A DNA stretch of 64,000 nt, from contig JBBPIP010000010.1 of the NCBI GenBank assembly GCA_038040265.1, positions 9,901 through 73,900 of the forward strand, read 5' to 3'. A program made the translations under genes and the position numbers. Positions 15,892 through 33,393 of this stretch are shown in pieces (position 1 is the first letter of the stretch; every line of letters starts with the position of its first letter). Under the pieces are notes generated by a model. That model was not told where the DNA came from and did not search any database. It saw nothing but the letters and a program-made list of their open reading frames with translations. The stretch comes from Chloroflexota bacterium. Lineage in GTDB: Bacteria > Chloroflexota > Limnocylindria > P2-11E.

Positions 15892-15926
15892 TGAGGGTGG
15901 CGACCCTAGGTTGGCCCTATCAGGCC

Positions 15927-15942
15927 GTCCCGGCAACGGGAC
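15927..15942. promoter_or_regulatory. 6-4-6 palindrome GTCCCGgcaaCGGGAC in the divergent hydrolase / repeat-membrane-protein intergenic region
   Basis: Perfect inverted repeat. A CGGCAAC direct repeat lies nearby (15931-15937 and 15955-15961). Confidence 0.25.
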
Positions 15943-16003
15943 TCATCCGGAATGTCGGCAACCTCACGTTTCGCGCTCAACCGAGGCGCATCATCAGAGC
16001 TTC

Positions 16004-18403: not shown

Positions 18404-18975
18404 GAGCCAGCGGTCCGCGAAACGCGGGCGTGATCCTCTGGTGTGTCGATGTCGTCCAGCGAACCCAGCGCCTCCGTGACGGCGAATTCGACGACGTCTT
18501 GATCCTTGAGCACCTCACGCATACCGACATCTTTGTGAAGAGCGAACGCGGCGGGCCAAAGGCTCTTGTGAAGGACCACCGGCGGCGAACGACGACCGCG
18601 CCAGACCGAGACAACCGCTGACGCGCGGGTCTCCCGGCCACGGAAGACGAGCTCGTCGATCAGCGCCGTAGTCACACCGGGAACGTCGCCGAGGAGCACG
18701 AGCGCGGCGTGCAGGTTTGAGTCGAGGCCGCGCAGGCCGATCTGGAGCGAGCTCGCGAGGCCCCGCGCGGGGTCCGGGTTGTGCACGACGCGCGCTCGAC
18801 CCGCGTCCAGCTGAGCCAGGAGATCGTCCCCGCTCGGGCCGACGACCAACACGATGTCCTCGAGGCACGATGCGTTCGCTGCGTCGATCACGTGTTGCAG
18901 CAGCGGTCGACCACCGAGTGGCGCGAGCAGCTTCTGGGCGCCGAAGCGGCGCGCTTCTCCCGCCGCGAGGATCAC
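18400..18975 (-). CDS. MobA/MocA-like nucleotidyltransferase (molybdenum-cofactor cytidylyltransferase-like)
   Basis: The GTG at 18975 gives IGGVILAAGEARRFG...KLLAPLGGRPLLQHVID, a NTP_transf_3 motif. It is the last gene of the cox operon. The track ORF's 94-aa N-terminal extension is Ser/Arg-rich and implausible. Confidence 0.7.
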   Translation of the reverse strand: MILAAGEARRFGAQKLLAPLGGRPLLQHVIDAANASCLEDIVLVVGPSGDDLLAQLDAGRARVVHNPDPARGLASSLQIGLRGLDSNLHAALVLLGDVPGVTTALIDELVFRGRETRASAVVSVWRGRRSPPVVLHKSLWPAAFALHKDVGMREVLKDQDVVEFAVTEALGSLDDIDTPEDHARVSRTAGS

Positions 18976-19000
18976 TCCGCCGATCTGCGGCGGGTCGGCC

Positions 19001-20062
19001 TCAGCGCGCGGCTGCAACCGGCTCGGCGGAGAGGCTCCGACCGCCGCGATGACGGCGAACCGCGACGATCTCGGCGAGGATCGCGAGCGCGATCTCCTCG
19101 GCGGTACCGGCGCCGATGTCGAGACCAATGGGCGCGTGGACGCGCGCGAGGTCGACCTCTCCGAAGCCCTGGTCGCGCAGCCACGCGAAACGTTCCTCAT
19201 TGGTTGTTCGGCTTCCGATCGCGCCGATATATCCGGACTCGGTTCGTAGTGCCGCAACGAGCGCGGGGTGGTCGAACTTTGGATCGTGCGTGAGGACCAC
19301 GATGGCCGAACTCGCGCCGAAGGTCAGCTTCGCGAGCGCGACGTCGGGCCATGCGAGCAGGAGCTCGTCAGCGAGAGGAAAGCGCTCGCGGTTCGCCAGC
19401 GCCTCGCGTGGATCGGCGACGACCACGCGATAGCCGACTGCTTTCGCGAGCGACGCCAGCGCCTGGGCTGTGTGCGTCGCCCCGACGATCGCGAGGAGCG
19501 GCGGGGTCCCGAGCGCCTCGAGGAAGATCGTGGCCTCGCGTCCGCCGAGTGTCGCGGGAACAGAGCGAGGTCTTCCCTCGGCCAGTGCGGCGACCGCCTG
19601 GACCTTGCTCGCCTCGAGCTCTGGAGGCCACCGGTCGACGCGATCCTCCCGCAGGATCGCGACTGTGCCAGCGCGGTCGGGAGGTGCGACGACCCGCAGG
19701 AGCACGGCTGCGCGCTCAGCGCGCACGGCTTCGAGCGCCGCGCGGTGCAGCGCGCCGACCGGCTCAATGAGCACGTCGATCTCACCCCCACACGAGAGAC
19801 CTACCGTGAAGGCGAACTCGTCGCTGATCCCATAGGTCACGACCCGCGGGTGGCCATCCTTCAACACGGCCATGGCTTCCTCGTACACCGCGGACTCGAC
19901 GCACCCGTTGCTGACTGAGCCCGCGAGCCGGTCGCCGGCGCGCGCGATGAGCGTGGCGCCGAGCTGCCGTGGAGCTGATCCCGCGATGCGCACGACGGTC
20001 GCGATCGCCACCGGCTCGCCCGTGGCGAGCCACTGCTCGAGCTCGGCCGCGACCTCTTTCAT
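19001..20062 (-). CDS. XdhC/CoxI-family molybdenum-cofactor insertion chaperone
   Basis: XdhC_CoxI N-domain (EPVAIATVVRIAGSAPRQLGATL) plus Rossmann XdhC_C (PLLAIVGATHTAQALASLA). ATG start at MKEVAAEL (20062). Confidence 0.8.
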   Translation of the reverse strand: MKEVAAELEQWLATGEPVAIATVVRIAGSAPRQLGATLIARAGDRLAGSVSNGCVESAVYEEAMAVLKDGHPRVVTYGISDEFAFTVGLSCGGEIDVLIEPVGALHRAALEAVRAERAAVLLRVVAPPDRAGTVAILREDRVDRWPPELEASKVQAVAALAEGRPRSVPATLGGREATIFLEALGTPPLLAIVGATHTAQALASLAKAVGYRVVVADPREALANRERFPLADELLLAWPDVALAKLTFGASSAIVVLTHDPKFDHPALVAALRTESGYIGAIGSRTTNEERFAWLRDQGFGEVDLARVHAPIGLDIGAGTAEEIALAILAEIVAVRRHRGGRSLSAEPVAAAR

Positions 20063-21039
20063 CGCGTGGCCGCGAGCGCGGCGGCGGGGTCCTTCAGGAA
20101 TCGGCGGCGGCACCCCTCGCCGCAGAAGTAATAGGTGGTGCCGTCGTAGTCGGCGCGGAGCGCGGTCGGCGTGATCGCGACGACCATGTCGCAGATCGGG
20201 TCGACCGCCTCGGCCGGTTTGGCCATCGGCTGGAAGTTACGGTGGGTCTCGGGCAGAGATGCGGCGACGCTCTCTCGCGCGTGCCGGTGCATCAGGATCT
20301 GCGCGAGGATCGAAAGCGCGATCTCCTCGTCGCTGGCGTGACCCATGTCGAGCCCGGCGGGATAGACGAGCCGCGTGACCTGCGCCTCGGTCAATCCGCG
20401 CCGCATCAGCGTGTCGCGAATCACGTCGCCCCTGGTCTGGCTTGCGACGAGGCCGATGTAGCTCGCCGGAGTCCGGAGCGCCTCCTCGGCCGGGTCCTCG
20501 TCCGCGTCGCCGCGCATGGCGATGACGATCGACGTGCGCGCGTCGACGTTGACGTCCGCGAGCTCGGTCGTGATGCGGTCGGCGGTGGGAAAGTCGACGG
20601 CGTTGACGTTCGGTTCCGCGACGACCACGTATCGGCCGAGCGCCGATCCGAGCGCCGCCAGCGCGCGCGCGACCGGCGTCTTTCCCAGGACGACGAGCTG
20701 CTCGGTCGGAAGGAGCGGTTCGATATGGATCTCCAGCGTGCCGCCTGAGTGGCACGTCATAGGAAAGTGTCGCACTCCAGGTCGCGGCGCTCCGGAGGTC
20801 TTGGAAATCTCGATCAGCCGTGCCTCGCCGTCGGCGATCGCCGCGACGGCCTCGCGGATAACCACCGGCGCCGCGCAGCTCCCGCCGATCCAGCCGGTGA
20901 GCCTGCCGTCCGGAGTGATGATCGCCTTCGCCCCGGGCTTCGCGGACGTCGGCCTGTCGGCGCGAACGACGGTCGCCGTCGCGAAAGGCTCGCGTCGCGC
21001 GAGGAGCTCGGCGGCGAGCTCGAAGAACGACGCGCTCAC
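20059..21039 (-). CDS. XdhC/CoxF-like protein fused to a C-terminal YHS/TRASH metal-binding domain
   Basis: Starts ...SASFFELAAELLARREPFATATVVRAD... (GTG after GGAGG) and ends DPICDMVVAITPTALRADYDGTTYYFCGEGCRRRF, a YHS consensus. The track's 560-aa ORF 20059..21741 is an artefact that runs through the upstream coxE gene in another frame. Confidence 0.65.
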   Translation of the reverse strand: MSASFFELAAELLARREPFATATVVRADRPTSAKPGAKAIITPDGRLTGWIGGSCAAPVVIREAVAAIADGEARLIEISKTSGAPRPGVRHFPMTCHSGGTLEIHIEPLLPTEQLVVLGKTPVARALAALGSALGRYVVVAEPNVNAVDFPTADRITTELADVNVDARTSIVIAMRGDADEDPAEEALRTPASYIGLVASQTRGDVIRDTLMRRGLTEAQVTRLVYPAGLDMGHASDEEIALSILAQILMHRHARESVAASLPETHRNFQPMAKPAEAVDPICDMVVAITPTALRADYDGTTYYFCGEGCRRRFLKDPAAALAATR

Positions 21040-22193
21040 GCAGCCTCCGCGCGGCGAACCGGCCGGCCGCGGCCGACGTGTCCGAGAAGCTCCGCGATGC
21101 GCGCCAGTCCGTCGAGCGTGTTCGCCGCGAGATGGTCGTCGGCGTGACCACTCAAAGCGCGCGCGCCGCGCGCGTCGGGCGAGTAGTCGCGCGTGCCCGA
21201 GAGTGGATCGAGCCAGATGAGTCGGTAGGCCGCGCGCTGCAGGCGGGCCGCTTCGCGCTCGAGCAGCGCGGGATCTCCGCGCTCCCAGCCATCGGTGACG
21301 AGTAGGACGATCGCGCCGCGGCCCAAGACCCGCCGCGACCACCGGAGATTGAACTCGTGCAGCGCTTCGCCGATGCGGGTCCCGCCGGACCAGTCCGCTA
21401 CGGCGCGCGAGACGTGCGCGAGGGCGGCATCGGGACGGCGCTCGCGCAGCTGTCGCGTGATGCGGGTCAGGCGCGTGCCGAAGGTGAATGTCTCGACGCG
21501 GCCCCAGCCTCGCGCGAGTGCGTGAGACATGTGCAGGAGGAGGCGGGTGTACGCCTCCATCGATCCGGAGACGTCGCACAGGATGACGAGCGGGCGCCGC
21601 TTCACGCGTCGCGCCCGGCGGATGAGCACGGCGGGCTCGCCGTGCGTGGCGAGCGATTTCCTCATGGTCGCGCGCGCATCCAGGCGCGACCCGTTTCGCG
21701 AGGAACGGAAGCGCCTGCTCGGGCGCTGGCCCGGCGACCACTGCAAACGCTCGAGGAAGCGCGCGGCCGCGGCGCGCTCGGCGGCGGTCATGGCCGAGAA
21801 GTCGGTGCTGCGCAGGAGCTCGGTCGGGCTTGCCATCACTCGGACGGTGCGCTCGATGAGCGACGTCATTCGGCTCGGCAGGTGCCCGAGCGGGACCTCG
21901 ATCTCGCCGGTCTCGACATCGGGCCGGCGGGCGCTGGGGATCGGCGACGAGAGACGTCCCCCGCGGAGGAGGGACCAGAAGATGTTGAACGTCACATCGA
22001 ACGCGGTGAGGTCGGCCTGGCGGGACACGAGGGCGGTGCGGCTCGCGGCGCGCACGTCGTCGGGACGCTCCAGGTCGATCTCGGCGATCGCCTGAAGATA
22101 GACGCGGGAGCGCTCGGCGTTGACGTGGACACCGGCCCGGCGAAGGAGTCGCGGGAGCATCAGGAGGTTCCGCGCGACGCGGTCGTCAGTCAC
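21036..22193 (-). CDS. coxE: CoxE-like vWA-domain protein
   Basis: vWA/MIDAS motifs: PLVILCDVSGSM, IVLLVTDGWERGDP. GTG start at 22193, overlapping the coxG stop (GTGA). Confidence 0.75.
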   Translation of the reverse strand: MTDDRVARNLLMLPRLLRRAGVHVNAERSRVYLQAIAEIDLERPDDVRAASRTALVSRQADLTAFDVTFNIFWSLLRGGRLSSPIPSARRPDVETGEIEVPLGHLPSRMTSLIERTVRVMASPTELLRSTDFSAMTAAERAAAARFLERLQWSPGQRPSRRFRSSRNGSRLDARATMRKSLATHGEPAVLIRRARRVKRRPLVILCDVSGSMEAYTRLLLHMSHALARGWGRVETFTFGTRLTRITRQLRERRPDAALAHVSRAVADWSGGTRIGEALHEFNLRWSRRVLGRGAIVLLVTDGWERGDPALLEREAARLQRAAYRLIWLDPLSGTRDYSPDARGARALSGHADDHLAANTLDGLARIAELLGHVGRGRPVRRAEAA

Positions 22194-22633
22194 GTGGCCT
22201 CGAGCTTCGCCTTGATGCAGGAGAACATCTGCTGGGTGATCTTGTCGGCCGCGCCCTGCATGAGCCTGGCGCCGACTTGCTGGATCATCCCGGACACCGA
22301 GACGTCGCTCGCCCATTTCATCGTGGTGCGCGTCCCGTCGAGCGCGGTGAGGTCCATCGTGCTTCGCATCTCGACGGCGCTCCCCGGCGCCTGGCCGCGC
22401 GCCAGCACGGAGGCATGACCGGGCTCCTCGAGCTCCGTGAACTCCACGTTCATCGAGAAGGTTCCCTTGATGGGCCCGACGCCGGCCCGGACCACGACCT
22501 TGAAGTGGCGCGGGTCGGTGATGTCGAGACTTTGCACGTCGGGCGCGCACGTCGTGACCTGCTTCGGATCGGTCAGGAAGGACCACACCCGATCGCGCGG
22601 TGCGGCTATGTCGAGCGTGCCCTCGAAACGCAT
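22190..22633 (-). CDS. coxG: CoxG (SRPBCC-fold CO-dehydrogenase subunit G)
   Basis: 147 aa; MRFEGTLDIAAPRDRVWSFLTDPKQV is typical of CoxG/polyketide_cyc2. Positioned directly after coxL. Confidence 0.8.
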   Translation of the reverse strand: MRFEGTLDIAAPRDRVWSFLTDPKQVTTCAPDVQSLDITDPRHFKVVVRAGVGPIKGTFSMNVEFTELEEPGHASVLARGQAPGSAVEMRSTMDLTALDGTRTTMKWASDVSVSGMIQQVGARLMQGAADKITQQMFSCIKAKLEAT

Positions 22634-22646
22634 CCCTTGGGCTAGG

Positions 22647-24998
22647 TCACTCCGCCACGCCGTTTTCCTTGAGGATCTTCTGCACCTTCCACGGTGTGAT
22701 TGGGATGTCGATGTGCCGAACGCCGAGATGAGCGAGCGCGTCGACGACCGCGTTCGCGATCGCCGCGGGTGCGCCGACGGTCGCTGACTCGCCGACGCCC
22801 TTCGCGCCGATGGGGTGGTGCGGCGATGGCGTCACGGTTTTGCCCAGCTCCCAGTTTGGGGTTTCCATCGCCGTGGGCAGGAGGTAGTCCATGAAGTTGC
22901 CGCCCTGTATGTTCCCGTCGTCGTCGTAGTTGATCTGCTCGTAAAGCGCGGGCGCGAGGCCCATGGTGAGGCCGCCGTGGACCTGACCCTCGACGATCAT
23001 CGGATTGATGATGGTCCCGCAGTCGTCCACCGCGACGAAGCGGCGGATCTTCACCTCGCCGGTGCCCTTGTCGATGTCGACGACGCAGATATATGAGCCG
23101 AATGGGTAGGTGAGGTTCGGGGGGTCGTAGTAGTCCACCGCCTCAAGCCCCGGCTCCATGCCCTGCGGGTGGTTCGTGTACGCGGCGAACGCGATCTCCT
23201 GCATCGTCTTCGACTTCGTCGGGACGCCCTTGACCTGGAACTTGTAGTCCTTCCACTCGATGTCGTCGGGGTTCGCTTCGAGGAGATGCGCCGCGATGAG
23301 CTTCGCCTTCTCGCGGATCTTCCGCGCCGCCAGCGCTGTGGCCGCGCCCGCGACCGGCGTGCTCCGGCTCGCATAGGTGCCGAGGCCGTACGGCGCGGTG
23401 TCCGTGTCGCCCTCCTCGACCGCGATGTCGCCGACCGGAAGCCCGAGCTCCTCGGCGACGATCTGCGCGAACGTCGTCTCGTGACCCTGACCCTGTGACT
23501 TCACACCGAGGCGGACCATCGCTTTGCCCGTCGGGTGCACGCGAATCTCGGCGGAGTCGAACATCTTGATGCCAAGGATGTCGAAGTGCTTCGACGGCCC
23601 TGCGCCGACGATCTCCGTGAAGCTTGAGATGCCGATGCCCATGAGCTCGCCCTTGGCGCGCTTCGCGGCCTGCTCCTTGCGGAGCTCGGCGTAGCCGATC
23701 TTGTCCATCGCCAGCTTGAGCGCGCGGCCGTAGTTACCGCTGTCGTATTCCCACCCGAGGACGGACTTGTACGGGAATGCTTCGGGCGGAATGAAGTTCT
23801 GCATCCGTAGCTCAGCGGGGTCCTTCTTCAGCTCGAGAGCGAGCACGTCGACGAGCCGCTCGATCGTGAAGGCGGCCTCGGTGACGCGGAACGAGCAGCG
23901 GTACGCGATGCCCCCCGGAGGCTTGTTCGTGTACGCGCCATCGACCTCGACGAACGACTTCTCGAACGGGTAGCTGCCGGTGACGACGTGGAAGAGCCCC
24001 GCCGGGAACTTGGACGGGTTCGCCGCGGCGTCGAACGCGCCGTGATCGGCGATCGTCTTCACGCGGAGGGCCTGCATCGTGCCGTCCTTCTTCGCGGCGA
24101 GCTCGGCGGTGATGTGGTAGTCCCGCGCGAACGAGTCGGCCTGGATGTTCTCGGAACGGTCTTCGATCCACTTGACCGGATGCCCGGTGAGGACCGACGC
24201 GCCGATCGCGAGCACGTAGCCCGGGTAGACCGGCACCTTGCCGCCGAAGCCACCGCCGATGTCCGGCGAGATGACGCGGATCCGCTCCTCGGAGAGGCCC
24301 AGGTGACCGGCGACGAGCGCGATGACCGTGCGAATCGCGTGGGGCGCCTGCGTCGTCATCCAGACGGTGAGCTTGCCATTGATCTTGTCGAAGCTCGCCA
24401 CCATGCCACACGTCTCGATCGAGGCGACGTGGATTCGCGGGATGTAGATGTCCTGCTTGACGACGACCTCGGCGTCGGCGAAGGCCTTGTCGGTCCCGGC
24501 CTTGTCGCCGACCTCCCAATGCCAGATGTGGTTGTCCTTCTGCGCGCGGTCCTCGCGCACGATCGTGGCGCCCGGTAGGAGCGCTTTGATCGGGTCCACC
24601 ACGACCGGAAGCGGCTCGTAGTCGACCTCGATCGCCGCGACGCCGTCGGCCGCGATGTAGCGCTCGGTCGCGACGACCGCCGCCACCTCCTGCGCCTGGT
24701 AGAGCACGGTGTCCGTCGGCAGGACCATCTGCTTGTCCGACATCAGCGTCGGCATCCACTCGAGCTTGAGCGGGACGAGGTCCTTGCCGGTGATCACGGC
24801 GAGCACGCCGGGGATGGCGAGCGCCTTCGAGGTGTCGATGCTCTTGATGCGCGCGTGCGCGTAGGGGCTGCGGGCGATGTCCATGTAGAGCATGCCCGGC
24901 AGCTTCACGTCGTCGACGTAGTTGCCGCGGCCGCGGATGAAGCGCGCGTCTTCCTTGCGCTTGACGCTCACGCCGATGCCGCCGATCTCTGTAGCCAC
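22647..24998 (-). CDS. coxL: Form I carbon-monoxide dehydrogenase large (molybdopterin) subunit
   Basis: 783 aa in the aldehyde oxidase / xanthine dehydrogenase molybdopterin-binding family. Contains the form-I-specific active-site loop GGIAYRCSFRVTEAA (AYXCSFR). Confidence 0.9.
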   Translation of the reverse strand: MATEIGGIGVSVKRKEDARFIRGRGNYVDDVKLPGMLYMDIARSPYAHARIKSIDTSKALAIPGVLAVITGKDLVPLKLEWMPTLMSDKQMVLPTDTVLYQAQEVAAVVATERYIAADGVAAIEVDYEPLPVVVDPIKALLPGATIVREDRAQKDNHIWHWEVGDKAGTDKAFADAEVVVKQDIYIPRIHVASIETCGMVASFDKINGKLTVWMTTQAPHAIRTVIALVAGHLGLSEERIRVISPDIGGGFGGKVPVYPGYVLAIGASVLTGHPVKWIEDRSENIQADSFARDYHITAELAAKKDGTMQALRVKTIADHGAFDAAANPSKFPAGLFHVVTGSYPFEKSFVEVDGAYTNKPPGGIAYRCSFRVTEAAFTIERLVDVLALELKKDPAELRMQNFIPPEAFPYKSVLGWEYDSGNYGRALKLAMDKIGYAELRKEQAAKRAKGELMGIGISSFTEIVGAGPSKHFDILGIKMFDSAEIRVHPTGKAMVRLGVKSQGQGHETTFAQIVAEELGLPVGDIAVEEGDTDTAPYGLGTYASRSTPVAGAATALAARKIREKAKLIAAHLLEANPDDIEWKDYKFQVKGVPTKSKTMQEIAFAAYTNHPQGMEPGLEAVDYYDPPNLTYPFGSYICVVDIDKGTGEVKIRRFVAVDDCGTIINPMIVEGQVHGGLTMGLAPALYEQINYDDDGNIQGGNFMDYLLPTAMETPNWELGKTVTPSPHHPIGAKGVGESATVGAPAAIANAVVDALAHLGVRHIDIPITPWKVQKILKENGVAE

Positions 24999-25002
24999 CG
25001 AA

Positions 25003-25526
<524 letters not shown>

Positions 25527-25527
<1 letters not shown>

Positions 25528-26399
25528 TAGGCACCTCCCTTCGCGCGAGCGACCGCTTTGACGATCGCCCGCTGCGTGAGCACGCGGACGACGTCCTTCT
25601 TGTATTCGGCAGGCCCGCGCAGGTCGGAGACCGGCTGGGCCGCCGCCGCCGCCCTGGACGCAGCCTCAGTGATCGTCTTGTCGTCGGGAGTCTGGCCGGT
25701 GAGCACGTCCTCGGCCCGGCCTGCGCGGATGGCTGTCGGCCCCACATTGGTGAGGCCGATGCCCGCCCGGGCGACCTTTCCGCTTGCGTCGAGCGTGAGC
25801 ATGACGGCGACGCCCGCGATCGCGAAGTCTCCGACCTTGCGCTCGAACTTGAGGTACACGCCGCCGCTCTTGGGAGCCGGCTTTGGGACGCGGATCTGAA
25901 TGAGAATCTCGTCCGGCGCGAGCGAGGTGGTGAACGTGTCGACAAAGAGCTCGTCGATCGGGATCACGCGCTCGCCCTTCGGGCCCTGCACCACGACGGA
26001 CGCGCGAACCGCGAGCATCGTCGCGGGGTGGTCGTTCGCGGGATCGGCGTGCGCGAGGTTGCCACCGATGGTCGCGAGGTTGCGCACGAGCGGATCGGCG
26101 ACCACCGCGGCTGTGTCGACGAGGATCGGATACCGCTGCCGGACGATGGGATTCGCTTCGAGGTCGTTCTCGCGGACGAGCGCACCGATGCGGAGGTCGC
26201 CGTTCTCCTTGATCTCCGACAGTCCGGCGACGCGGTTGATGTCAATGAGCAGCGCCGGTTGCGCGAGCCGGAACTTCATTAGTGGGATAAGGCTCTGGCC
26301 ACCGGCGAGGATCTTTCCCTCGCCGCCCGAGCCTCGCAGGAGCTCGATTGCGTGGGCGACGTCGCGCGCGACCGCGTAGTCAAACGATGCCGGGATCAT
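25527..26399 (-). CDS. coxM: CO dehydrogenase medium FAD-binding subunit
   Basis: FAD_binding_5 + CO_deh_flav_C: ILAGGQSLIPLMKFRLAQPALLIDI, ATIGGNLAHADP. GGAGG lies upstream of the ATG. Confidence 0.9.
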
Positions 26400-26477
26400 G
26401 TCCGCCTCCCCAAAACCCTCGCCAGACGTTCGAACTTTACACCCGCATACGTTTGAGGCCTGGGACTGGATGCCCCG

Positions 26478-27023
26478 CTAGCGGACGACCACCTCGGTGA
26501 ACACGCCCTGATCGCGCAGCCAGCCGACCGCCACGATGGTGGGGCGGACGTCGATGCGATAGGTGCCCGGGGCAACGCCCTTGACCTTGAAGGTGAACGT
26601 CGCGACTTCGCCGGCTGCCACGACCTCCTCGGCCTGGACCGCGGGCCGATCCGGTAGCGGCCAGTTGACCGCCATCTGGGGATTGAACTTCGCCGCGGTG
26701 CCGACGAAGGCGAGGCTCGCCTCGGAGCCTGTGCCGCGCGCCCACGCGGCCTTGCCGGTGTTCTTGAACTTGAACGTCACGGTCGTTTCGGCGCCGACCG
26801 CGATCTGCGCCGGCACGGTCTGGCTGACCCACGCGCTATCGAGGTCGGCCGCCTTTGGCAGCGGGGCCGTCGGACTCGCGGCGGCCGACGGCTGCGGGCC
26901 TTGCGATGAACGCGCGGGCGTGCCGCCGCAGAGACCGGAGATCGCGATGAGGACGAGGCCGAACACTCCGGCGAAGACCATCGCGCCGGTGTGCGAGCCC
27001 GTGCGCGGCGCCCTCATGTACAT
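26478..27023 (-). CDS. Hypothetical secreted lipoprotein with an Ig-like beta domain
   Basis: Start at MYMRAPRTG. Signal peptide plus lipobox (AISGLCGG). Beta-rich C-terminal region. The track ORF extends to 27098. Confidence 0.5.
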   Translation of the reverse strand: MYMRAPRTGSHTGAMVFAGVFGLVLIAISGLCGGTPARSSQGPQPSAAASPTAPLPKAADLDSAWVSQTVPAQIAVGAETTVTFKFKNTGKAAWARGTGSEASLAFVGTAAKFNPQMAVNWPLPDRPAVQAEEVVAAGEVATFTFKVKGVAPGTYRIDVRPTIVAVGWLRDQGVFTEVVVR

Positions 27024-27072
27024 CGCGTTGAGTGTGGAAACCGGGGCGGTCAGCCGGTAGGACAGCGGCGTA

Positions 27073-28197
27073 TCAATGGCCGACCGCGGTGCGAACACGC
27101 TCGGCCGTAACGTTCAGCCTCGCGAGCATTTGCACGGCAAAGCTCTCGTCGTTGCGCACGATCGCGAGCAGAAGATGCTCGGGGAGGACGCCGATGTCCG
27201 GACCAGATTCCTGGACGACCACCTCGAAGATCTCCTTCGTCTCCGGGCTGAGGACGACCTCCCATTGGGGCGTCCGTTGCTCGACGTGAGGGATGATCTC
27301 GGCAAGCTCGGCGCGCAGCGACTCCACCGTGAGACCGAGCTCGTCGAAGATCCGCTTCATCGCCTGGTCGGCCTGACCCACTCCGGTCAGGCGCGCGAGA
27401 CCAAGAAGCAGATGCTCGGGTCCGATGTAGTTATGGCCCATGCGGACGGCCTCGTCCTGAGCCAGCGCGAGTGCACGCTTCGCGCGGTTGCTGAATCGAT
27501 CGAACGGCCCGGTGTGGTGGCGGCGGAACGGCGGTGCGTAGCCTGCCGGCGCGGCGGTGCCGGATTCGCTGAGCAGCTCGAGCACCTTGGCGCGTAGGGT
27601 CTCGAGCGGCACGCCGAGCGACTCGAGAATGCCCGAGGCGATGCCCTCGCCCTCGTCGACGAGCCCGAGAAGAAAATGCTCCGGGCCGACGTGAGACTGG
27701 CCCATCTGCCCAGCCTCGGCGATCGCGAATTCGATGACCTTCTTGGTGCGCGGCGACAGCGTGATCTCGCTCGGCGACGTCGTTTGATCCCCACGGCCGA
27801 CGATGAAGTCGAGGGCGCTTCGGATCTTCGTCAGATCGATTCCCACGGAAGTGAGTGCGCGGGCCGGGACCGTGTCGCCTTCCCGGATGAGCGCGCAGAG
27901 CACGTGCTCCGTGCCGATGTAGTTGTGGTTGTGTCGAATGGCTTCATCCTGCGCCAGCGCGAGCACCCGTTTGCCGCGATCGCTGAACCGATCGAACGGG
28001 CCCATGGCCTGCGCGGAGCCCATCCTTATGTTTGCCCTCGGGGCGTGCTCGAACCCAGGCGTGTGCCTCATAAAGGTCTGAGTCCGTGATCCTTTGCCGC
28101 CAGCCATCCAAGCCTGGATGGCCCCCATCACGACCGCGGCAACCGCGCCGCCGGCGAGCCCGGCGAGGAGCGCGACAAGGATGACCTCGACCGTCAC
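27073..28197 (-). CDS. Membrane-anchored protein with two complete ClpC-type N-domains (four Clp_N repeats)
   Basis: N-terminal TM helix (VILVALLAGLAGGAVAAVV), then two copies of FDRFSDRGKRVLALAQDEAIRHNHNYIGTEHVL...LSPRTKKVIEFA and FDRFSNRAKRALALAQDEAVRMGHNYIGPEHLLLGL. Confidence 0.75.
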   Translation of the reverse strand: MTVEVILVALLAGLAGGAVAAVVMGAIQAWMAGGKGSRTQTFMRHTPGFEHAPRANIRMGSAQAMGPFDRFSDRGKRVLALAQDEAIRHNHNYIGTEHVLCALIREGDTVPARALTSVGIDLTKIRSALDFIVGRGDQTTSPSEITLSPRTKKVIEFAIAEAGQMGQSHVGPEHFLLGLVDEGEGIASGILESLGVPLETLRAKVLELLSESGTAAPAGYAPPFRRHHTGPFDRFSNRAKRALALAQDEAVRMGHNYIGPEHLLLGLARLTGVGQADQAMKRIFDELGLTVESLRAELAEIIPHVEQRTPQWEVVLSPETKEIFEVVVQESGPDIGVLPEHLLLAIVRNDESFAVQMLARLNVTAERVRTAVGH

Positions 28198-28820
28198 GAC
28201 GTCGGTCCATCAACGATCTCGCGGATCCGCTGAGGCGTCGCGCCCAAAGATGCGAGCACGTCCGCGCCAGCGCCGCCGCCCTCGACGGCAACCGCGATCA
28301 GCAGGTGCTCGGGCGCCACCTCATCGCGGTGGCGTTCCTCCGCGCTCGCGCGCGCTAGGGCGACGATCCTCGTAGCGCGCTCGGTCCAGGTCCCTTCCGT
28401 CGGGAAGGTCCCGAGGATCGGTGGTACCGCCGCCTCGATCCGCCGCCGCAGCACGTCAGACTCGATTCCAAGCTCGCTCCAGATCTTGTCGAGCATCGGC
28501 GTGGAGTAGAGCCGGAGCGCCATCGCCAGGTTTTCGCTACCGATATACGAGTGGCCGCTCTGGATCGCTTCCTGCCGCGCGAGCGTGAGGACCTTCTGCG
28601 TATCGACGTCGAGGTGATCGACGGCTATCGCCCGGACGGTGAAGTGGTCGAACTGCGCTGTGCCCCCTGGCGTGGGCCGGGCGACGTACCTCGAGCCACG
28701 TTCCCTATGGGACTGCCGCTGCCGCAACATTCCTTCGACGGTCCCGACGAGCGCGGCACCGACCGCACCGCCGGCAAGGCCGGCGACGACCGCGACGACC
28801 GCGACTGTTCCGAGGTCCAC
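28194..28820 (-). CDS. Membrane-anchored Clp_N-domain protein
   Basis: N-terminal TM helix (VAVVAVVAGLAGGAVGAALV) followed by Clp_N repeats (KVLTLARQEAIQSGHSYIGSENLAMAL; HRDEVAPEHLLIAVAVEGGG). 4-nt overlap with the next gene. Confidence 0.7.
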   Translation of the reverse strand: MDLGTVAVVAVVAGLAGGAVGAALVGTVEGMLRQRQSHRERGSRYVARPTPGGTAQFDHFTVRAIAVDHLDVDTQKVLTLARQEAIQSGHSYIGSENLAMALRLYSTPMLDKIWSELGIESDVLRRRIEAAVPPILGTFPTEGTWTERATRIVALARASAEERHRDEVAPEHLLIAVAVEGGGAGADVLASLGATPQRIREIVDGPTS

Positions 28821-28826
28821 GCGAAG

Positions 28827-29075
28827 CTACTCCGGTGGGCGGGTTGCCTCGTCCTCTTGCTCGGGGTGGGGTTGAGGTTCGGCGTGCGCGAGATGCCGGG
28901 CGAGGGGTCCGGTCGGGGTGCGCCACTCCGTCGTCGGGTGGGGTGCGCCGACGGTGGTTCCGCCGAGATGGCGCTGCGCGCGTATCACGCCTAGAGAGAC
29001 CACCACCGCGACGAGCGCACCGGTGATGCCACCCGCGATCGCCGCGACGATGATCGCGCTGTCGAAGATGTTCAT
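28827..29075 (-). CDS. Small membrane protein (82 aa); same N-terminal TM anchor as neighbours but no Clp_N domain
   Basis: MNIFDSAIIVAAIAGGITGALVAVVV..., then a Pro/His-rich tail. Abuts the upstream Clp_N gene (stop/start adjacent). Confidence 0.45.
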   Translation of the reverse strand: MNIFDSAIIVAAIAGGITGALVAVVVSLGVIRAQRHLGGTTVGAPHPTTEWRTPTGPLARHLAHAEPQPHPEQEDEATRPPE

Positions 29076-30008
29076 CTATTCACTCATCCTGTCGAGAATT
29101 TCGCGGATACGTTGCGGGGTCGCACCGACCGCCGTGAGAACCGTAGCGCCGATGCCTTCGCCGGCCGCGATCGCGAGGAGGAGGTGCTCGTTGCGGATCG
29201 ACGCACAGCTGCGCTCCGCCGCGAAGGACGCTGCACGTGTGATCACGTCGGAGAGAGCGCGGCCCTCTGTGAGACCGGCAGGTCTCGGGCCTTGTCGCGG
29301 GGGTGCCGCGGAGTCGATGCCTGCCACGAGATCCGCGAAATCGACGCCAGCGTCTGCGAGCACGCGGCGGATCCACACCTCTTCATTGGCAACGAGCGCG
29401 AGCAGGAGATGGTGCGGCTTGATCTCTTCCTCGTTCGCGCGGCCTGCTTCCCAATACGCGCGCGCCCGGGCGCGGCGCGCGCCGCCGTCGAGCCGGTCGT
29501 GCGGCATCGACTGGAAAGCCATCGCGGAGATCTCCGGGCGCGCGGGTGTGGTCCGGGCGTCAGGGTGTTGGGCGAGAGTCGCGATGACCTGCTCGCGCAC
29601 CGTATCGAGAGCCACTCCGAGAGACTGAAGGACACCCGCGCCGATGCTCCCGCCTTCGCGGACGATCCCGAGGAGCAGATGTTCGGTGCCGACCCAGCCG
29701 TGGCCGAGTTTGCGCGCTTCGTCGATCGCGAGCTCGATGACCTTCTTTGTGCGCGGCGAGAGGATGATCTCGCTCGGCGTCGTCGTCGCGTCGCCGCGGC
29801 CGATGATGAACTCGACGTTGGTGCGCGCCTTCGAAAGGTCGACGTCGAGTGAGTTCAGCGCCCGCGCGGCGACCCCTTCGCCTTCGCGGATCAGCCCGAG
29901 CAGCAGATGCTCGACTCCTATGTAGTTGTGGTTGAAGCGGATCGCCTCGTCCTGGGCGAGCGCCAGGACGCGCTTGGCGCGGTCGTTGAAGCGGTCGAAC
30001 GGCCCCAT
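29076..30008 (-). CDS. Soluble orphan ClpC N-domain protein (Clp_N double repeat plus a degenerate third/fourth repeat)
   Basis: MGPFDRFNDRAKRVLALAQDEAIRFNHNYIGVEHLLLGLIREGEGVAARAL...LSPRTKKVIELAIDEARKLGHGWVGTEHLLLGIV closely matches the ClpC N-terminal domain. No AAA+ module follows. Confidence 0.8.
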   Translation of the reverse strand: MGPFDRFNDRAKRVLALAQDEAIRFNHNYIGVEHLLLGLIREGEGVAARALNSLDVDLSKARTNVEFIIGRGDATTTPSEIILSPRTKKVIELAIDEARKLGHGWVGTEHLLLGIVREGGSIGAGVLQSLGVALDTVREQVIATLAQHPDARTTPARPEISAMAFQSMPHDRLDGGARRARARAYWEAGRANEEEIKPHHLLLALVANEEVWIRRVLADAGVDFADLVAGIDSAAPPRQGPRPAGLTEGRALSDVITRAASFAAERSCASIRNEHLLLAIAAGEGIGATVLTAVGATPQRIREILDRMSE

Positions 30009-30042
30009 TGGTAAGCGAGGCTAATCCTCGCTTGGTCGCTTA

Positions 30043-31689
30043 CTAGAGGAGGGTGCCGTAATCCTTGATCGTGTAGCGGAAGTCCTCACGAGTGTTGTCG
30101 AGGGCTTTGACGATGAGCTGCATCGTCTTGCTGACCGCCTCCATCTTGGAGCCGATGGCCTTGTCGTTCTGCAACACCGTGTTCAGGTCGTACGCGGCGG
30201 CCGACTTGAAGAGCATGCGGAACATCTCCATCTCTTCGTCCAGCGTGGCCGGTTTGTCCTTGGCCCTCTGGTATTCGGACCACATCTTGTCGACACCCTT
30301 CGCCTCGATCGTGTCGATCCACGCGCGTTCCTTCTTGTCGTCGACGGCGCGGTAGGAGTTGTAGACGATCTCCTTCGTGCCGGCGGGCGTTCGCCCGACG
30401 AGGAGGCGTGCCATGAACTCGTCGATGTTCAGGCGATCGACGATCACGTCTTCGTCGAAGTTGCGCTTGATGAGAAGCACCGCGTGGATGCGAGCGGGCT
30501 CCATCGGGTTCGTGAACACGCGCTCCTTCGGGAACACCGTGGTGATGTCGAGCATCGCGCGCGTGTTTTCGAACGCGAAGAAGCGGCCGACCATGTCGCG
30601 CAGGGTCTTTTCGTCCATGGCGTCGAACGGCGGCTTGTTCATGCTCTTGAGCTTCGCGGCGACCGCGTCGATCGTTGCCTTGTTCTCGTTCATGAACTCC
30701 GGCGTCACGTCGGGCGCGTTCTCGAGGCGGGAACGGACCATGTCGAAGGCCGCCTGCGGGAAGTTCTCTACCAGGTTCGAGCGAAGGTAGAAGACCTTCT
30801 CGCTCGTGTACGCGTATGCCTCGGGATGGTCCACGTCCAGGTCGCGCGCACTCGCGGTGACCTCGCGGTCGTCGAGTCCTCGACCTATCACGGTCGCGTC
30901 GCTCGACCGATGGTCCTCGAGCCAGCGGTACGTCTGGTAACCCTTTGCGACCTCCGCGCCGCCGTCGAGGATCCGCGCCGGCGAGAAGACCTTCCCGTCC
31001 TTGGCGCGGTAGGCGTAGCGGACGTACACCCAGTCGTCGGAGTGGAAGCGCGTGCCGGGGAACTCCATCACGCCGTATGTCGAGGTCGACTTCCCGGTGC
31101 CGGTGGGCGCGATATAGAGGATGCCCTTTCCGTCCTTGGTCACGACGGCGCCGTGGATGGAGTGGATGCCGTACTCGACCGCGAGCTTGCGCCCGACCGC
31201 GCCGAGCACCCACGACTTCAGCTGGCCGTAGTAGCTCGTGTTGAAGAAGATGACCGTGTCGTTCTGCCGCGAGTAGTACGCGGCCTCGGCCTCGCTCGGC
31301 ACGCGGCCAAGAGCCACGACCAAAACGTCGGGAGTTTCCGCCGGCTTCTGGCCGGTGATCCGCTGCCACTCGTCGACGCCGTACCAGTTGTCTTTCCAGT
31401 ACCCGTAGAGGTGCTCGCTGTTGGTGAGCGCGCGAACGCGCAGGCCGTGGATCACCACGTCGTGCGAGTACGTCGTCTCCTTCGCCGTCGCGATGTGCTC
31501 GAATGCGTTCGCGAGGAGGCGCTTGAAGAGGCCCGGCTTCGCATCGACCGTCTTGTCGCTGACGAGCGTTCGGCCCTTGGTGCGCGTGATCGTGTTCTTC
31601 GCGCCGATCGGCGTGCCTGCCCATTCCGGCGACGTCGCATCGGGCGCGGCAGGGAAGGTGTAGAGGTCCTTCTTTTCGGCGATTGCCAT
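30043..31689 (-). CDS. Divergent P-loop protein with a PEP-carboxykinase(ATP)/HPr-kinase-like nucleotide-binding core; function unknown
   Basis: 548 aa. Core NTSYYGQLKSW...IHSIHGAVVTKDGKGILYIAPTGTGKSTSTYGVMEFPGTRFHSDDWVYV parallels PEPCK kinase-1a ([28 protein letters not shown]...LIGDDEHGW) and HprK (GxxGxGKS...ADD). The flanking sequence is Lys/Asp-rich and unlike canonical PEPCK. GC is slightly lower than in neighbouring genes. Confidence 0.6.
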   Translation of the reverse strand: MAIAEKKDLYTFPAAPDATSPEWAGTPIGAKNTITRTKGRTLVSDKTVDAKPGLFKRLLANAFEHIATAKETTYSHDVVIHGLRVRALTNSEHLYGYWKDNWYGVDEWQRITGQKPAETPDVLVVALGRVPSEAEAAYYSRQNDTVIFFNTSYYGQLKSWVLGAVGRKLAVEYGIHSIHGAVVTKDGKGILYIAPTGTGKSTSTYGVMEFPGTRFHSDDWVYVRYAYRAKDGKVFSPARILDGGAEVAKGYQTYRWLEDHRSSDATVIGRGLDDREVTASARDLDVDHPEAYAYTSEKVFYLRSNLVENFPQAAFDMVRSRLENAPDVTPEFMNENKATIDAVAAKLKSMNKPPFDAMDEKTLRDMVGRFFAFENTRAMLDITTVFPKERVFTNPMEPARIHAVLLIKRNFDEDVIVDRLNIDEFMARLLVGRTPAGTKEIVYNSYRAVDDKKERAWIDTIEAKGVDKMWSEYQRAKDKPATLDEEMEMFRMLFKSAAAYDLNTVLQNDKAIGSKMEAVSKTMQLIVKALDNTREDFRYTIKDYGTLL

Positions 31690-31786
31690 GGAGACGACTC
31701 ACATTAGCGGCGCGCTTATTTCCTTGCTGCGAACCTAGCGGCCCGCGGCTCCCTATCCTTGCGCTATGGCCGCGCGCGCTGGTGCG

Positions 31787-32743
31787 ATGGTCGAACTGCG
31801 CGAGGTCACCAAACGCTACGGCGACACCGTCGCGGTCGACCATCTCAGCTTCACCGCTCCCGCCGGGCGGATCACTGTCTTGATCGGTCCGTCAGGCTGC
31901 GGAAAGACCACGTCGCTTCGCATGGTGAATCGGCTGATCGAGCCGACCTCGGGCGAGATCCTCATCGACGGGCACAACGTTCTTCAGGAGGATCCGACCG
32001 AACTCCGGCGGCGCATCGGCTACGTCATTCAGCAGGTCGGCCTGTTCCCGCACCGAACGATCGCCCAGAACATCGCCACGGTCCCGGAGCTTCTCGGCTG
32101 GCCGGAGGCGCGGATACGCGCGCGTGTTGACGAGCTTCTCTCACTTATCGGCTTCGACCCCGAGCGCATGCGCCACCGTTATCCAGCCCAGCTTTCGGGT
32201 GGCGAGCGCCAGCGCGTCGGCGTCGCGCGCGCGATGGCCGCCGAGCCGCCGCTCATGCTTATGGACGAGCCCTTCGGCGCGGTCGACCCGATCGTCCGCG
32301 AGCGCCTGCAGAACGAATTCCTGCAGCTGCAGCGCGCCCAGGGCATCACCGTCATCTTCGTAACGCACGACATCGATGAGGCGATCAAGCTCGGCGACCG
32401 CATCGCGATCATGCGTGCAGGGAAGCTCGTGCAATTCGCACCGCCCGCGGAGCTGCTGGCGCATCCCGCCGACGACTTCGTCGCACAGTTCGTGGGAAGC
32501 GATCGCGGCCTCAAGCGCCTTGCGCTTCTCACCGTCGGTGGGGCCGAGCTCGATCCGCCGGTGGATCCGTCGCGGCTCGATGGCGCGCCCGTCCTCTCGC
32601 CGGCGATGACGCTCCGCGACGCGCTCGCCGAGATGCTCGCGTCCGAAACGCAAGTGGGCATAGTGCGCGACGGCGACCGGTATCTCGGAGTGCTGACCCT
32701 CTCGCACATCGGGAGGCTGCTTCGCAGCGAGGACCACAAATGA
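31787..32743 (+). CDS. Osmoprotectant (glycine betaine/choline, OpuC/OsmV-type) ABC transporter ATP-binding protein with C-terminal CBS pair
   Basis: Walker A (GPSGCGKTT), ABC signature (LSGGERQRVGVARA), Walker B (LMLMDEPFGAVD). C-terminal ...QVGIVRDGDRYLGVLTLSHI is CBS-like. The track ORF starts at 31766. Confidence 0.85.
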   Translation: MVELREVTKRYGDTVAVDHLSFTAPAGRITVLIGPSGCGKTTSLRMVNRLIEPTSGEILIDGHNVLQEDPTELRRRIGYVIQQVGLFPHRTIAQNIATVPELLGWPEARIRARVDELLSLIGFDPERMRHRYPAQLSGGERQRVGVARAMAAEPPLMLMDEPFGAVDPIVRERLQNEFLQLQRAQGITVIFVTHDIDEAIKLGDRIAIMRAGKLVQFAPPAELLAHPADDFVAQFVGSDRGLKRLALLTVGGAELDPPVDPSRLDGAPVLSPAMTLRDALAEMLASETQVGIVRDGDRYLGVLTLSHIGRLLRSEDHK

Positions 32744-33393
32744 CCGCGGGCGAGCCGCTGATCCGCTGGGACTGGCTGGGGAGCCACGCGGAGGAGATCG
32801 GCCAGCGCATCGGCGAGCACCTCGAACTGACGGTCATCGCGGTCGTCGTTGGCCTCGTGATCGCTTTTGCGCTGTCGTTCGTGGCGTTGCGCGTCCCCCG
32901 CCTGTACCCGCCCATCACCGGTATCACCGGGATTCTCTACACGATCCCGAGCCTTGCGCTCTTCGCGTTTCTGGTTCCGTACACCGGCCTGTCGGTGCTC
33001 ACCGCGGAGATCGGGCTCGTCAGCTACACGCTGCTCATCCTCATTCGCAACATCGTGGGTGGGATCCGCGGCGTGCCGGCGGAGGTACGGGAGGCCGCGC
33101 TCGGCATGGGCTACACGACGCGGCAGATCCTCTGGCGGATAGAGCTGCCGCTCGCGCTCGGCGTGATCTTCGCGGGGATCCGCGTCGCGACGATCACGAC
33201 GATCGGTCTTGTCACGGTGACGGCGCTCATCGGCGAGGGCGGCCTCGGCTACTTCATCCTCCTCGGGATCCAGCTCTTCTTCAGCACCCCGCTCATCGTG
33301 GGCGCCGTCGGTTCGGTGCTCCTGGCGGTCCTCATCGACGGCGGGCTCGTTCTGGTGCAGCACGCGCTCACGCCGTGGAGCCGCGTCCGATGA
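32740..33393 (+). CDS. Osmoprotectant ABC transporter permease
   Basis: 217 aa, 5-6 TM. 4-nt overlap with the ATPase gene. Confidence 0.85.
   Translation: MTAGEPLIRWDWLGSHAEEIGQRIGEHLELTVIAVVVGLVIAFALSFVALRVPRLYPPITGITGILYTIPSLALFAFLVPYTGLSVLTAEIGLVSYTLLILIRNIVGGIRGVPAEVREAALGMGYTTRQILWRIELPLALGVIFAGIRVATITTIGLVTVTALIGEGGLGYFILLGIQLFFSTPLIVGAVGSVLLAVLIDGGLVLVQHALTPWSRVR

Follow-up and report, generated by a model that had tools for sequence, protein, structure and literature searches.

A cluster of Clp_N proteins without an unfoldase motor

The stretch of DNA analysed here, hereafter the window, comprises 64,000 nucleotides of a contig (JBBPIP010000010.1) from a Chloroflexota bacterium of the class Limnocylindria. 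Its minus strand carries, at 27073–30008, an array of four consecutive genes (g1 to g4), three of which encode the N-terminal domain of Clp unfoldases (Clp_N) with no ATPase attached. Upstream lies a gene for a protein with a phosphoenolpyruvate carboxykinase (PEPCK) fold (g0), and downstream a short gene (g5) and a form I CO dehydrogenase (cox) cluster. The four genes had been picked out in an earlier reading of the sequence alone (the original prediction), and the list of open reading frames (ORFs) places them, all on the minus strand, where that reading had put them. The first, g1 (29076–30008), encodes a soluble protein of 310 aa with two Clp_N double-repeat modules (aa 2–148 and aa 169–309), and g2 (28827–29075) encodes an 82-aa single-pass membrane protein, the helix of which spans aa 6–31 (nt 28983–29060). 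The product of g3 (28194–28820) is 208 aa long and combines a predicted N-out/C-in anchor (aa 3–28; nt 28737–28814) with a single, divergent module that we refer to as 'terminal-type' (aa 56–207; nt 28200–28655). That of g4 (27073–28197; 374 aa) has a similarly oriented predicted anchor (aa 5–34; nt 28096–28185), a basic linker of approximately 30 aa, a ClpC-like module (aa 66–209; nt 27571–28002) and a divergent module (aa 230–373; nt 27079–27510). Two 4-nt overlaps and one abutting junction had been described between these genes; the overlap is present between g3 and g4 only (GTGA) and the direct junction between g1 and g2 (TAG followed by ATG), while g2 and g3 are separated by a 6-nt gap.

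Searches against Pfam, where the gathering cut-off for Clp_N (PF02861) is 20.7 bits, gave scores of 158.5 bits for g1 (E=4.2e-47; four half-repeats, that is, two modules), 173.5 bits for g4 (E=9.2e-52; four half-repeats) and 52.9 bits for g3 (E=4.3e-14), and no domain match for g2. The whole g3 module was also matched by a hidden Markov model (HMM) that we built for these modules and by the N-terminal positions of ClpK/ClpB models. When compared with the PDB, g1 aligned end to end with the solved N-domains of ClpC (5hbn, E=3.2e-46; 3wdb, 8.9e-45; 2y1r, ~1e-45). The proposed similarity to Clp_N therefore survives profile searches, and the claim that the genes encode Clp_N repeats only is correct for g1, g3 and g4 but not for g2, which has no such repeat. 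No Walker A motif is present in g1–g4, compared with two in the 829–842-aa ClpC of the same lineage, and NCBIfam models for ClpA/B/K/V match g1–g4 only through positions ~1–250, with 20–85 bits against cut-offs of 885–1900. The AAA+ module is thus missing from these proteins, as had been supposed, and they are members of the Clp_N domain family but not class I Hsp100/Clp unfoldases. The g4 protein is 100% identical to a database entry (P0001) that NCBI names 'Clp protease N-terminal domain-containing protein [Chloroflexota bacterium]', and its relatives carry the name Candidatus Limnocylindria.

Three of the proteins have predicted cytoplasm-facing membrane anchors

Each of g2, g3 and g4 starts with one hydrophobic helix, with mean Kyte-Doolittle values over 19 residues of 2.3–2.65. 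Signal sequences for Sec or Tat export or for lipoproteins have a positive n-region followed by a cleavage site or lipobox, and this arrangement is absent from g2–g4. Lysine and arginine are missing ahead of the helix in 32 of 32 orthologues of the three proteins, and acidic residues in that segment average at least one. Across the same orthologues, the 15 residues that follow the 26–29-residue core contain on average 2.2 (g2), 3.4 (g3) or 4.1 (g4) lysines or arginines. Since there are no positive charges before the helix and two to four after it, the positive-inside rule predicts that the helices are N-out/C-in anchors and not signal peptides of secreted proteins, in line with the original prediction of membrane tethering. 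The Clp_N modules would therefore be located on the cytoplasmic face of the membrane, where ClpC works.

The anchor helices are conserved beyond what hydrophobicity requires, with residues A12, G13, G16, G17, G25, Q28, A29 and M31 of the g4 helix being invariant in 20 homologues. They had been considered paralogous, and g3 and g4 indeed have the exact 8-mer AGLAGGAV in common; together with AGGITGALVA in g2 it gives all three helices a small-xxx-small pattern. Such small-residue helices suggest helix-helix packing, possibly among g2, g3 and g4.

The array is conserved and its genes are under purifying selection

A scan of species-representative genomes, in which gene order was taken from ORF calls, the module HMM and BLAST, returned 80 loci. 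The order g0 (548 aa)–(g1)–g2–(g3)–g4–g5, with the genes in brackets not always present, recurs in at least 13 Limnocylindria assemblies (L001–L009, L021, L022/L023, L025), and a further copy lies on a 188-kb metagenome contig whose genes were called independently (L081). Every array whose contig extends that far has g2 and g4. Orthologues of g1 are found in L001, L004–L006, L008, L009, L021, L025 and L081, g3 has two modules in L006, L021 and L025, and the order in L007 and L008 is g2-g1-g4.

The small g2 protein had been described as a remnant consisting of a transmembrane segment only. It can be seen, though, that g2 is present in 13 loci at 58–87% identity, that it was also called as a gene by the independent pipeline behind L081, and that its cytoplasmic tail is conserved (RAQRHLGGT..EWRxPxGPLARHLAHAE). 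An invariant motif within this tail, W-R-x-P-(S/T)-G-P-L-A-R-H, is absent from all other ORFs of the 80 loci. The remnant description is not tenable, and judged by its conservation g2 has the appearance of a dedicated small subunit.

Ratios of non-synonymous to synonymous divergence (pN/pS) were computed against the window genes; synonymous sites are near saturation, so that the values are upper bounds. They are 0.29–0.47 for g1, 0.20–0.25 for g2 (against close relatives), 0.40–0.53 for g3 and 0.35–0.59 for g4. We consider it extremely unlikely that the array has no function, whether as fragments of a disrupted clpC, as chance ORFs in GC-rich DNA or as secreted proteins with cleaved signal peptides. 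Spurious ORFs are indeed numerous in high-GC DNA, g3 is the least constrained of the array genes, and one relative (L019) seems to lack a start codon and an intact frame. Against this, the same order and frames are found in at least 13 assemblies and in independent gene calls, pN/pS is below 1 for all array genes, no AAA+ remnants lie between them, and the n-regions are without any lysine or arginine. The same metagenome-assembled genomes (MAGs; for example L001/L028, L002/L030, L005/L047 and L008/L048) have, at another position, an intact clpC whose product contains two Walker A motifs, which excludes the idea of a single broken clpC, an explanation that had already been thought improbable.

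The relative in L019 (10000–11370) is a Clp_N gene that follows a PEPCK-fold gene and has an apparent ATA in place of the ATG start, its sequence running across two overlapping frames. Nearby, g2, g4 and cox are all missing. This represents either decay or an assembly error.

Some contigs carrying the array or a Limnocylindria-type ClpC (its N-terminal domain showing ~83% identity to module 1 of g1) are deposited as parts of MAGs named Bathyarchaeia, Udaeobacter, Dormiibacterota, Acidiferrales and Saccharimonadales (L009, L021, L024, L056, L064). On two of them, L009 and L021, g0 is ~90% identical to that of the window. These five contigs are probably binning contaminants.

The modules resemble the ClpC N-domain of the same lineage

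The N-domain of native ClpC is essentially invariant in 40 Limnocylindria genomes. Identity to this domain is 82% for g1 module 1, 70% for g4 module 1, 46% for g4 module 2, 32% for the g3 module and 29% for g1 module 2, compared with 61% for the N-domain of Bacillus subtilis ClpC; of the B. subtilis and Mycobacterium tuberculosis reference sequences used for identities and for the tree, that of B. subtilis was compared with the PDB alignment and agrees with it. In a neighbour-joining tree without bootstrap, all of the ATPase-less modules group with the Limnocylindria ClpC N-domain, apart from those of B. subtilis and M. tuberculosis. In this tree the first modules resemble ClpC and the last ones form a divergent 'terminal' group, with g3 of the window falling beside the second, terminal module of the two-module g3 of L006 and L025. 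Array modules and native ClpC also have lineage-specific features in common (MGPFDRFNDR and TTSPSEITLSPRTKK). Taken together, these similarities indicate that the modules derive from the lineage's own ClpC N-domain, with an origin independent of ClpC2, ClpC3 and ClpT, the ATPase-less Clp_N proteins of other organisms.

The first 31 residues of g1 are exactly those of the native ClpC N-terminus. Gene conversion between g1 and clpC was considered as the source of this identity and rejected, because identity at third codon positions between g1 module 1 and ClpC is no higher within a genome (55–65%) than between genomes (52–67%). With no gene conversion detected, it is selection on the protein that keeps g1 so like ClpC.

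In g1 module 1 and g4 module 1 alike, helix 1, the two GxEH loops and SPRTKKVIELAIDEARKLGH are the segments that are best preserved, and they contain the equivalents of T7, E32, K85 and E106 (Staphylococcus aureus/B. subtilis numbering). In ClpC, these four residues make up two phosphoarginine (pArg) pockets and the site contacted by adaptors and cyclic peptides, and the resting state is held together by them as well (PMC12583610). We scored the pocket set T7, T81, E32 and E106, in B. subtilis/S. aureus numbering (PMC12583610, PMC13345244), together with K85. The equivalents of E32, E106 and K85 are kept in g1 module 1 and in both g4 modules. At the positions of T7 and T81, g1 module 1 has Asn and Ser, as does native ClpC, and g4 modules 1 and 2 have Ser and Ser. 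The g3 module was scored with Thr at both positions and with the two Glu residues retained. In repeat 1 of all g1 orthologues the GTEH loop is changed to G(V/M)EH, and the equivalent of M. tuberculosis F80 is Leu in native ClpC and the copies alike.

Other motor-less Clp_N proteins in Limnocylindria

The array is not the only place in these genomes where Clp_N modules occur without a motor. Limnocylindria encode soluble proteins with three or four modules in a row (~480 and ~640 aa), the majority of those inspected starting with MGPFDRFNDR, and further Clp_N-only arrays lie at cox-free loci (L013 and L017). Two Clp_N modules are joined to a HIT domain in L015 and P0077, and to a ClpX C4 zinc finger in L018 and L020. 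HIT enzymes hydrolyse phosphoramidates, the class of compound to which pArg belongs, and the HIT fusion is by analogy a weak hint of a phospho-ligand. Motor-less architectures were also noted in L010–L012, L016, P0003, P0017 and P0056. This range of architectures points to a lineage that makes general use of receptor domains without motors.

Relationship to known Clp_N proteins

The closest solved relatives are the N-terminal domains of ClpC from B. subtilis and S. aureus and of M. tuberculosis ClpC1 (5hbn, 3wdb), which have the same double Clp_N repeat fold. Module 1 of g1 is 55% identical to the B. subtilis domain and keeps the equivalents of E32, K85 and E106. The array proteins differ from ClpC in that they lack the AAA+ modules, the M-domain and the ClpP loop, in that modules occur in tandem and two of the proteins are anchored, and in that both pocket Thr residues are Asn or Ser.

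ATPase-less proteins built on a ClpC-like N-domain are known from actinobacteria. ClpC2 (Rv2667; 8ad9, 9p2p) competes with ClpC1 for cyclomarin, rufomycin, pArg and casein and keeps one of the two pArg sites (PMC10030653, PMC13345244); g1 orthologues likewise alter one pocket, through the change in their GTEH loop. ClpC2 consists of an N-terminal dimerisation and DNA-binding part followed by a single C-terminal Clp_N domain, whereas the array proteins are without such an N-terminal part, have one or two modules each, include anchors and reach 82% identity to the native N-domain. The PDB matches to ClpC2 chains (E=1.9e-19 and 1.8e-15) are far weaker than those to ClpC (3e-46). Mycobacterial ClpC3 is, like the array copies, a small Clp_N-only protein, but it has a single soluble module and belongs to another lineage; PDB entry 8b9o, which we take to be ClpC3 from its name 'Clp amino terminal domain protein', gave a weak match (E=1.5e-15). 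ClpC3 is reported, with reference to Hoi 2023, to bind the same ligands as the ClpC1 N-domain (PMC10864484).

Chloroplast ClpT1 and ClpT2 ('double Clp-N motif protein'; 4y0b, 4y0c) are free-standing double Clp_N proteins without an ATPase, as is the case here, but the matches are distant (E=1.6e-10 and 6.1e-08) and they have neither an anchor nor tandem modules. Both are found in the stroma of plant chloroplasts, where they attach to the ClpP core. By architecture, the weaker matches and tree position, the array proteins are not orthologues of ClpC2, ClpC3 or ClpT. By analogy they probably work like ClpC2 and ClpC3 in the sense of competing for ligands. A literature search found no paper joining Limnocylindria and Clp, and none on membrane-anchored bacterial Clp_N proteins. 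ATPase-less relatives are thus known, and membrane-tethered tandem ones are apparently undescribed in the searched literature.

A possible role in competing for ClpC ligands

We tentatively propose, at somewhat less than an even chance, that the copies are ATPase-less competitors or holders for ligands of the ClpC N-domain, acting at the membrane (g3 and g4) or in the cytosol (g1). The first modules would keep the surfaces with which the ClpC N-domain binds adaptors, tagged substrates and unfolded segments, and without a motor could not unfold what they bind; they would therefore be competing receptors or holders. Proteins g3 and g4 would take up endogenous ligands that ClpC also binds and retain them at the membrane, with g1 doing so in the cytosol, and the effect would be to buffer or slow their delivery to ClpCP. 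Contacts for assembly or with partners could come from the divergent last modules and from the g2 tail, and g2, g3 and g4 might form a hetero-oligomer in the membrane.

Several points weigh against this proposal. Binding of pArg is uncertain for native ClpC and for the copies, because the pockets have Asn or Ser in place of Thr at T7 and Ser in place of Thr at T81, and most pocket residues are gone from g1 module 2 and from g3. The array is partly optional, with g1 missing in L002, L003 and L022 and g3 in L001 and L004, and the apparent decay in L019 counts in the same direction. It has no linked regulator, in contrast to ClpC2, which represses its own gene. The suggested g2/g3/g4 hetero-oligomer has the common small-xxx-small pattern as its basis, and the mechanism as a whole is drawn from sequence and precedent. 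The same data are compatible with a decoy, a membrane adaptor or a phospho-protein receptor, the three roles raised in the original prediction.

Other explanations were considered. The copies could belong to a broader motor-less triage layer made up of soluble chains of two to four modules, the HIT and ClpX-zinc-finger fusions and a membrane complex of g2, g3 and g4, which complex would take up tagged or unfolded proteins on the cytoplasmic side and steer their hand-over to ClpCP or a membrane protease; we regard this as an unlikely, though not far-fetched, extension. They could also be a sponge for toxins that target the ClpC N-domain, either cyclic or lasso peptides of soil neighbours (of the cyclomarin, rufomycin, ecumicin or lassomycin type) or phage proteins, the anchored copies intercepting them just inside the membrane. 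ClpC2 and ClpC3 act in this way (PMC10030653, PMC13345244, PMC10864484). The native N-domain is invariant and g1 copies its 31 N-terminal residues and its K85 region, K85 and the hydrophobic groove being contact sites for such peptides (PMC12583610). Sample names point to a soil habitat, and the three- and four-module chains of the lineage are multivalent. We nevertheless judge a sponge improbable, since there is no drug-responsive regulator of the kind represented by the ClpC2 autorepressor, cyclomarin-type binding is not expected with Leu at the F80 position, no such toxin is known for Chloroflexota, and the copies are under ordinary purifying selection. We would place at about the same low level the possibility that the array tethers or regulates ClpC itself, with the copies binding its M-domain or AAA1 in trans and so docking ClpC or ClpCP at the membrane or tuning its activation. 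In the resting state, the pArg pockets and K85 of the N-domain do contact the M-domain and AAA1 (PMC12583610), the residues concerned are kept in g1 module 1 and g4 modules 1 and 2, and membrane anchoring would give such a tether a spatial logic. Binding between N-domain and M-domain in trans has, however, not been reported, and the soluble g1 and soluble multi-module paralogues do not fit.

Very unlikely, in our view, is a role as an accessory system of the adjoining CO dehydrogenase, for example in membrane docking or in quality control during its maturation. The proximity of the two is recurrent: coxMSL genes follow the array in eight loci (the window, L001, L004, L005, L007, L008, L023 and L081), CoxL has the form I motif AYRCSFR, and no terminator-like site was found on the minus strand between array and cox. 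Yet in four of these loci (L004, L005, L007 and L008) a gene for a DUF5671-like membrane protein of 574–627 aa lies on the opposite strand between g5 and coxM, and co-transcription of array and cox is therefore not conserved. What had been read as an array running on into the cox genes is conserved synteny and not an obligate operon. Furthermore, in L019 the upstream gene and a Clp_N gene occur without any cox gene inside 10 kb, further Clp_N-only paralogues sit at loci that are free of cox, and the known accessory genes (coxG, coxE and XdhC-like) are in their usual place downstream of coxL.

An essential protease is controlled by way of the ClpC N-domain, a gate on which adaptors, phospho-tagged substrates and several antibiotic leads all act, and ATPase-less copies that modulate this gate have been shown only recently, in mycobacteria (ClpC2 and ClpC3). 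The array would represent a separate and far more extensive invention of this device, in a soil lineage that is abundant but uncultured. It adds tethering to the membrane by small-residue helices, an 82-aa partner, and a ClpC-like module in tandem with a divergent terminal one. If the copies compete with ClpC as we propose, they would be natural, highly similar decoys for studying N-domain recognition in bacteria that are not known to have an arginine kinase, and would show that proteolysis can be organised in space without a motor; if they do not, they would be an ordinary lineage-specific domain expansion. A triage layer, if that reading were true, would be a new organisational principle for regulated proteolysis, beyond a sponge of the ClpC2 kind.

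Genes surrounding the array

Downstream of g4, g5 (26478–27023, minus strand) encodes a protein of approximately 180 aa. Its N-terminus is positive and is followed by a hydrophobic helix, a linker of Pro/Ala/Ser and a domain rich in beta strands, features that make an extracytoplasmic location probable. It follows g4 in seven related loci at 53–71% identity, and its only Pfam matches are sub-threshold (Cupredoxin_1, 0.0036; N_BRCA1_IG, 0.0069). This gene had been reported as a lipoprotein. Comparison with orthologues puts the start probably at ~27023, approximately 50 nt after g4, and not at the overlapping GTG at 27098; with respect to the label, the Cys is conserved in only six of eight orthologues and the lipobox is non-canonical. 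As a member of the array system, g5 is uncertain.

The form I CO dehydrogenase cluster (18400–26399, minus strand) begins with coxM, coxS and coxL. After coxL comes a gene for a CoxE-like VWA protein, which is extended by a long stretch at its N-terminus, and then one for an XdhC/CoxI-like protein to which a metal-binding YHS domain is fused; genes for another XdhC-like protein and for a MobA-like transferase follow. Among the scanned ORFs of this region, none was recognised as a coxD-like AAA+ gene. A large DUF5671 membrane protein is also encoded near the cox cluster of the window, on the plus strand (15911–18403). Scans of 20000–33000 found no promoter-like sites; terminator-like sites numbered six where 5.8 were expected, and all of them lie on the plus strand, a result that is uninformative. 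PADLOC protein models of anti-phage defence systems gave no match at E<=0.01 for g0–g5.

On the other side of the array, g0 (30043–31689, minus strand) is the most conserved neighbour, at 85–91% identity across array loci. This 548-aa protein has a PEPCK fold with a P-loop kinase core, although g0 itself matches no PEPCK model in Pfam or NCBIfam and only distant relatives touch such models. Sequence and profile searches of the PDB gave nothing significant, and an AlphaFold2 model made from a shallow alignment was discarded (pLDDT, the predicted local distance difference test score, 44.7). The precomputed annotation is PF27840 'ScmC'. The family is small, with 196 clusters at E<=0.001 among 1.84 billion representatives, and its members occur fused to aspartate aminotransferase or to true PEPCK. 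In Armatimonadota and other Chloroflexota, homologues adjoin a class I/II aminotransferase gene or a gene of the lactate/malate dehydrogenase family (Ldh_1), and no Clp_N gene is found near them. Weak HprK-related matches had raised the idea that g0 is a protein kinase writing a mark that is read by the Clp_N modules; this was rejected on the grounds of the full PEPCK fold and of the neighbours of these homologues. We conclude that g0 is most likely a divergent PEPCK-like metabolic enzyme, functionally unrelated to the array, and that the link between the two is lineage-specific synteny. One g0 homologue (P0241) has an intein just after the P-loop; inteins are typical of highly conserved nucleotide-binding sites.

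Between the g0 stop codon and g1 lies an intercistronic hairpin (30013–30033, minus strand; AAGCGAGG-ATTAG-CCTCGCTT) with an 8-bp stem, a predicted RNA folding energy of -12.5 kcal/mol and no U-tract. Rfam gave no match for the array region or for the hairpin. The hairpin could set how strongly the array is expressed, by way of RNA processing, RNA stability or partial termination. Its core, GAGGATTAGCCTC, is retained in L001, L004, L009 and L021, and in L003 and L022 the sequence of the stem is altered with the pairing kept.

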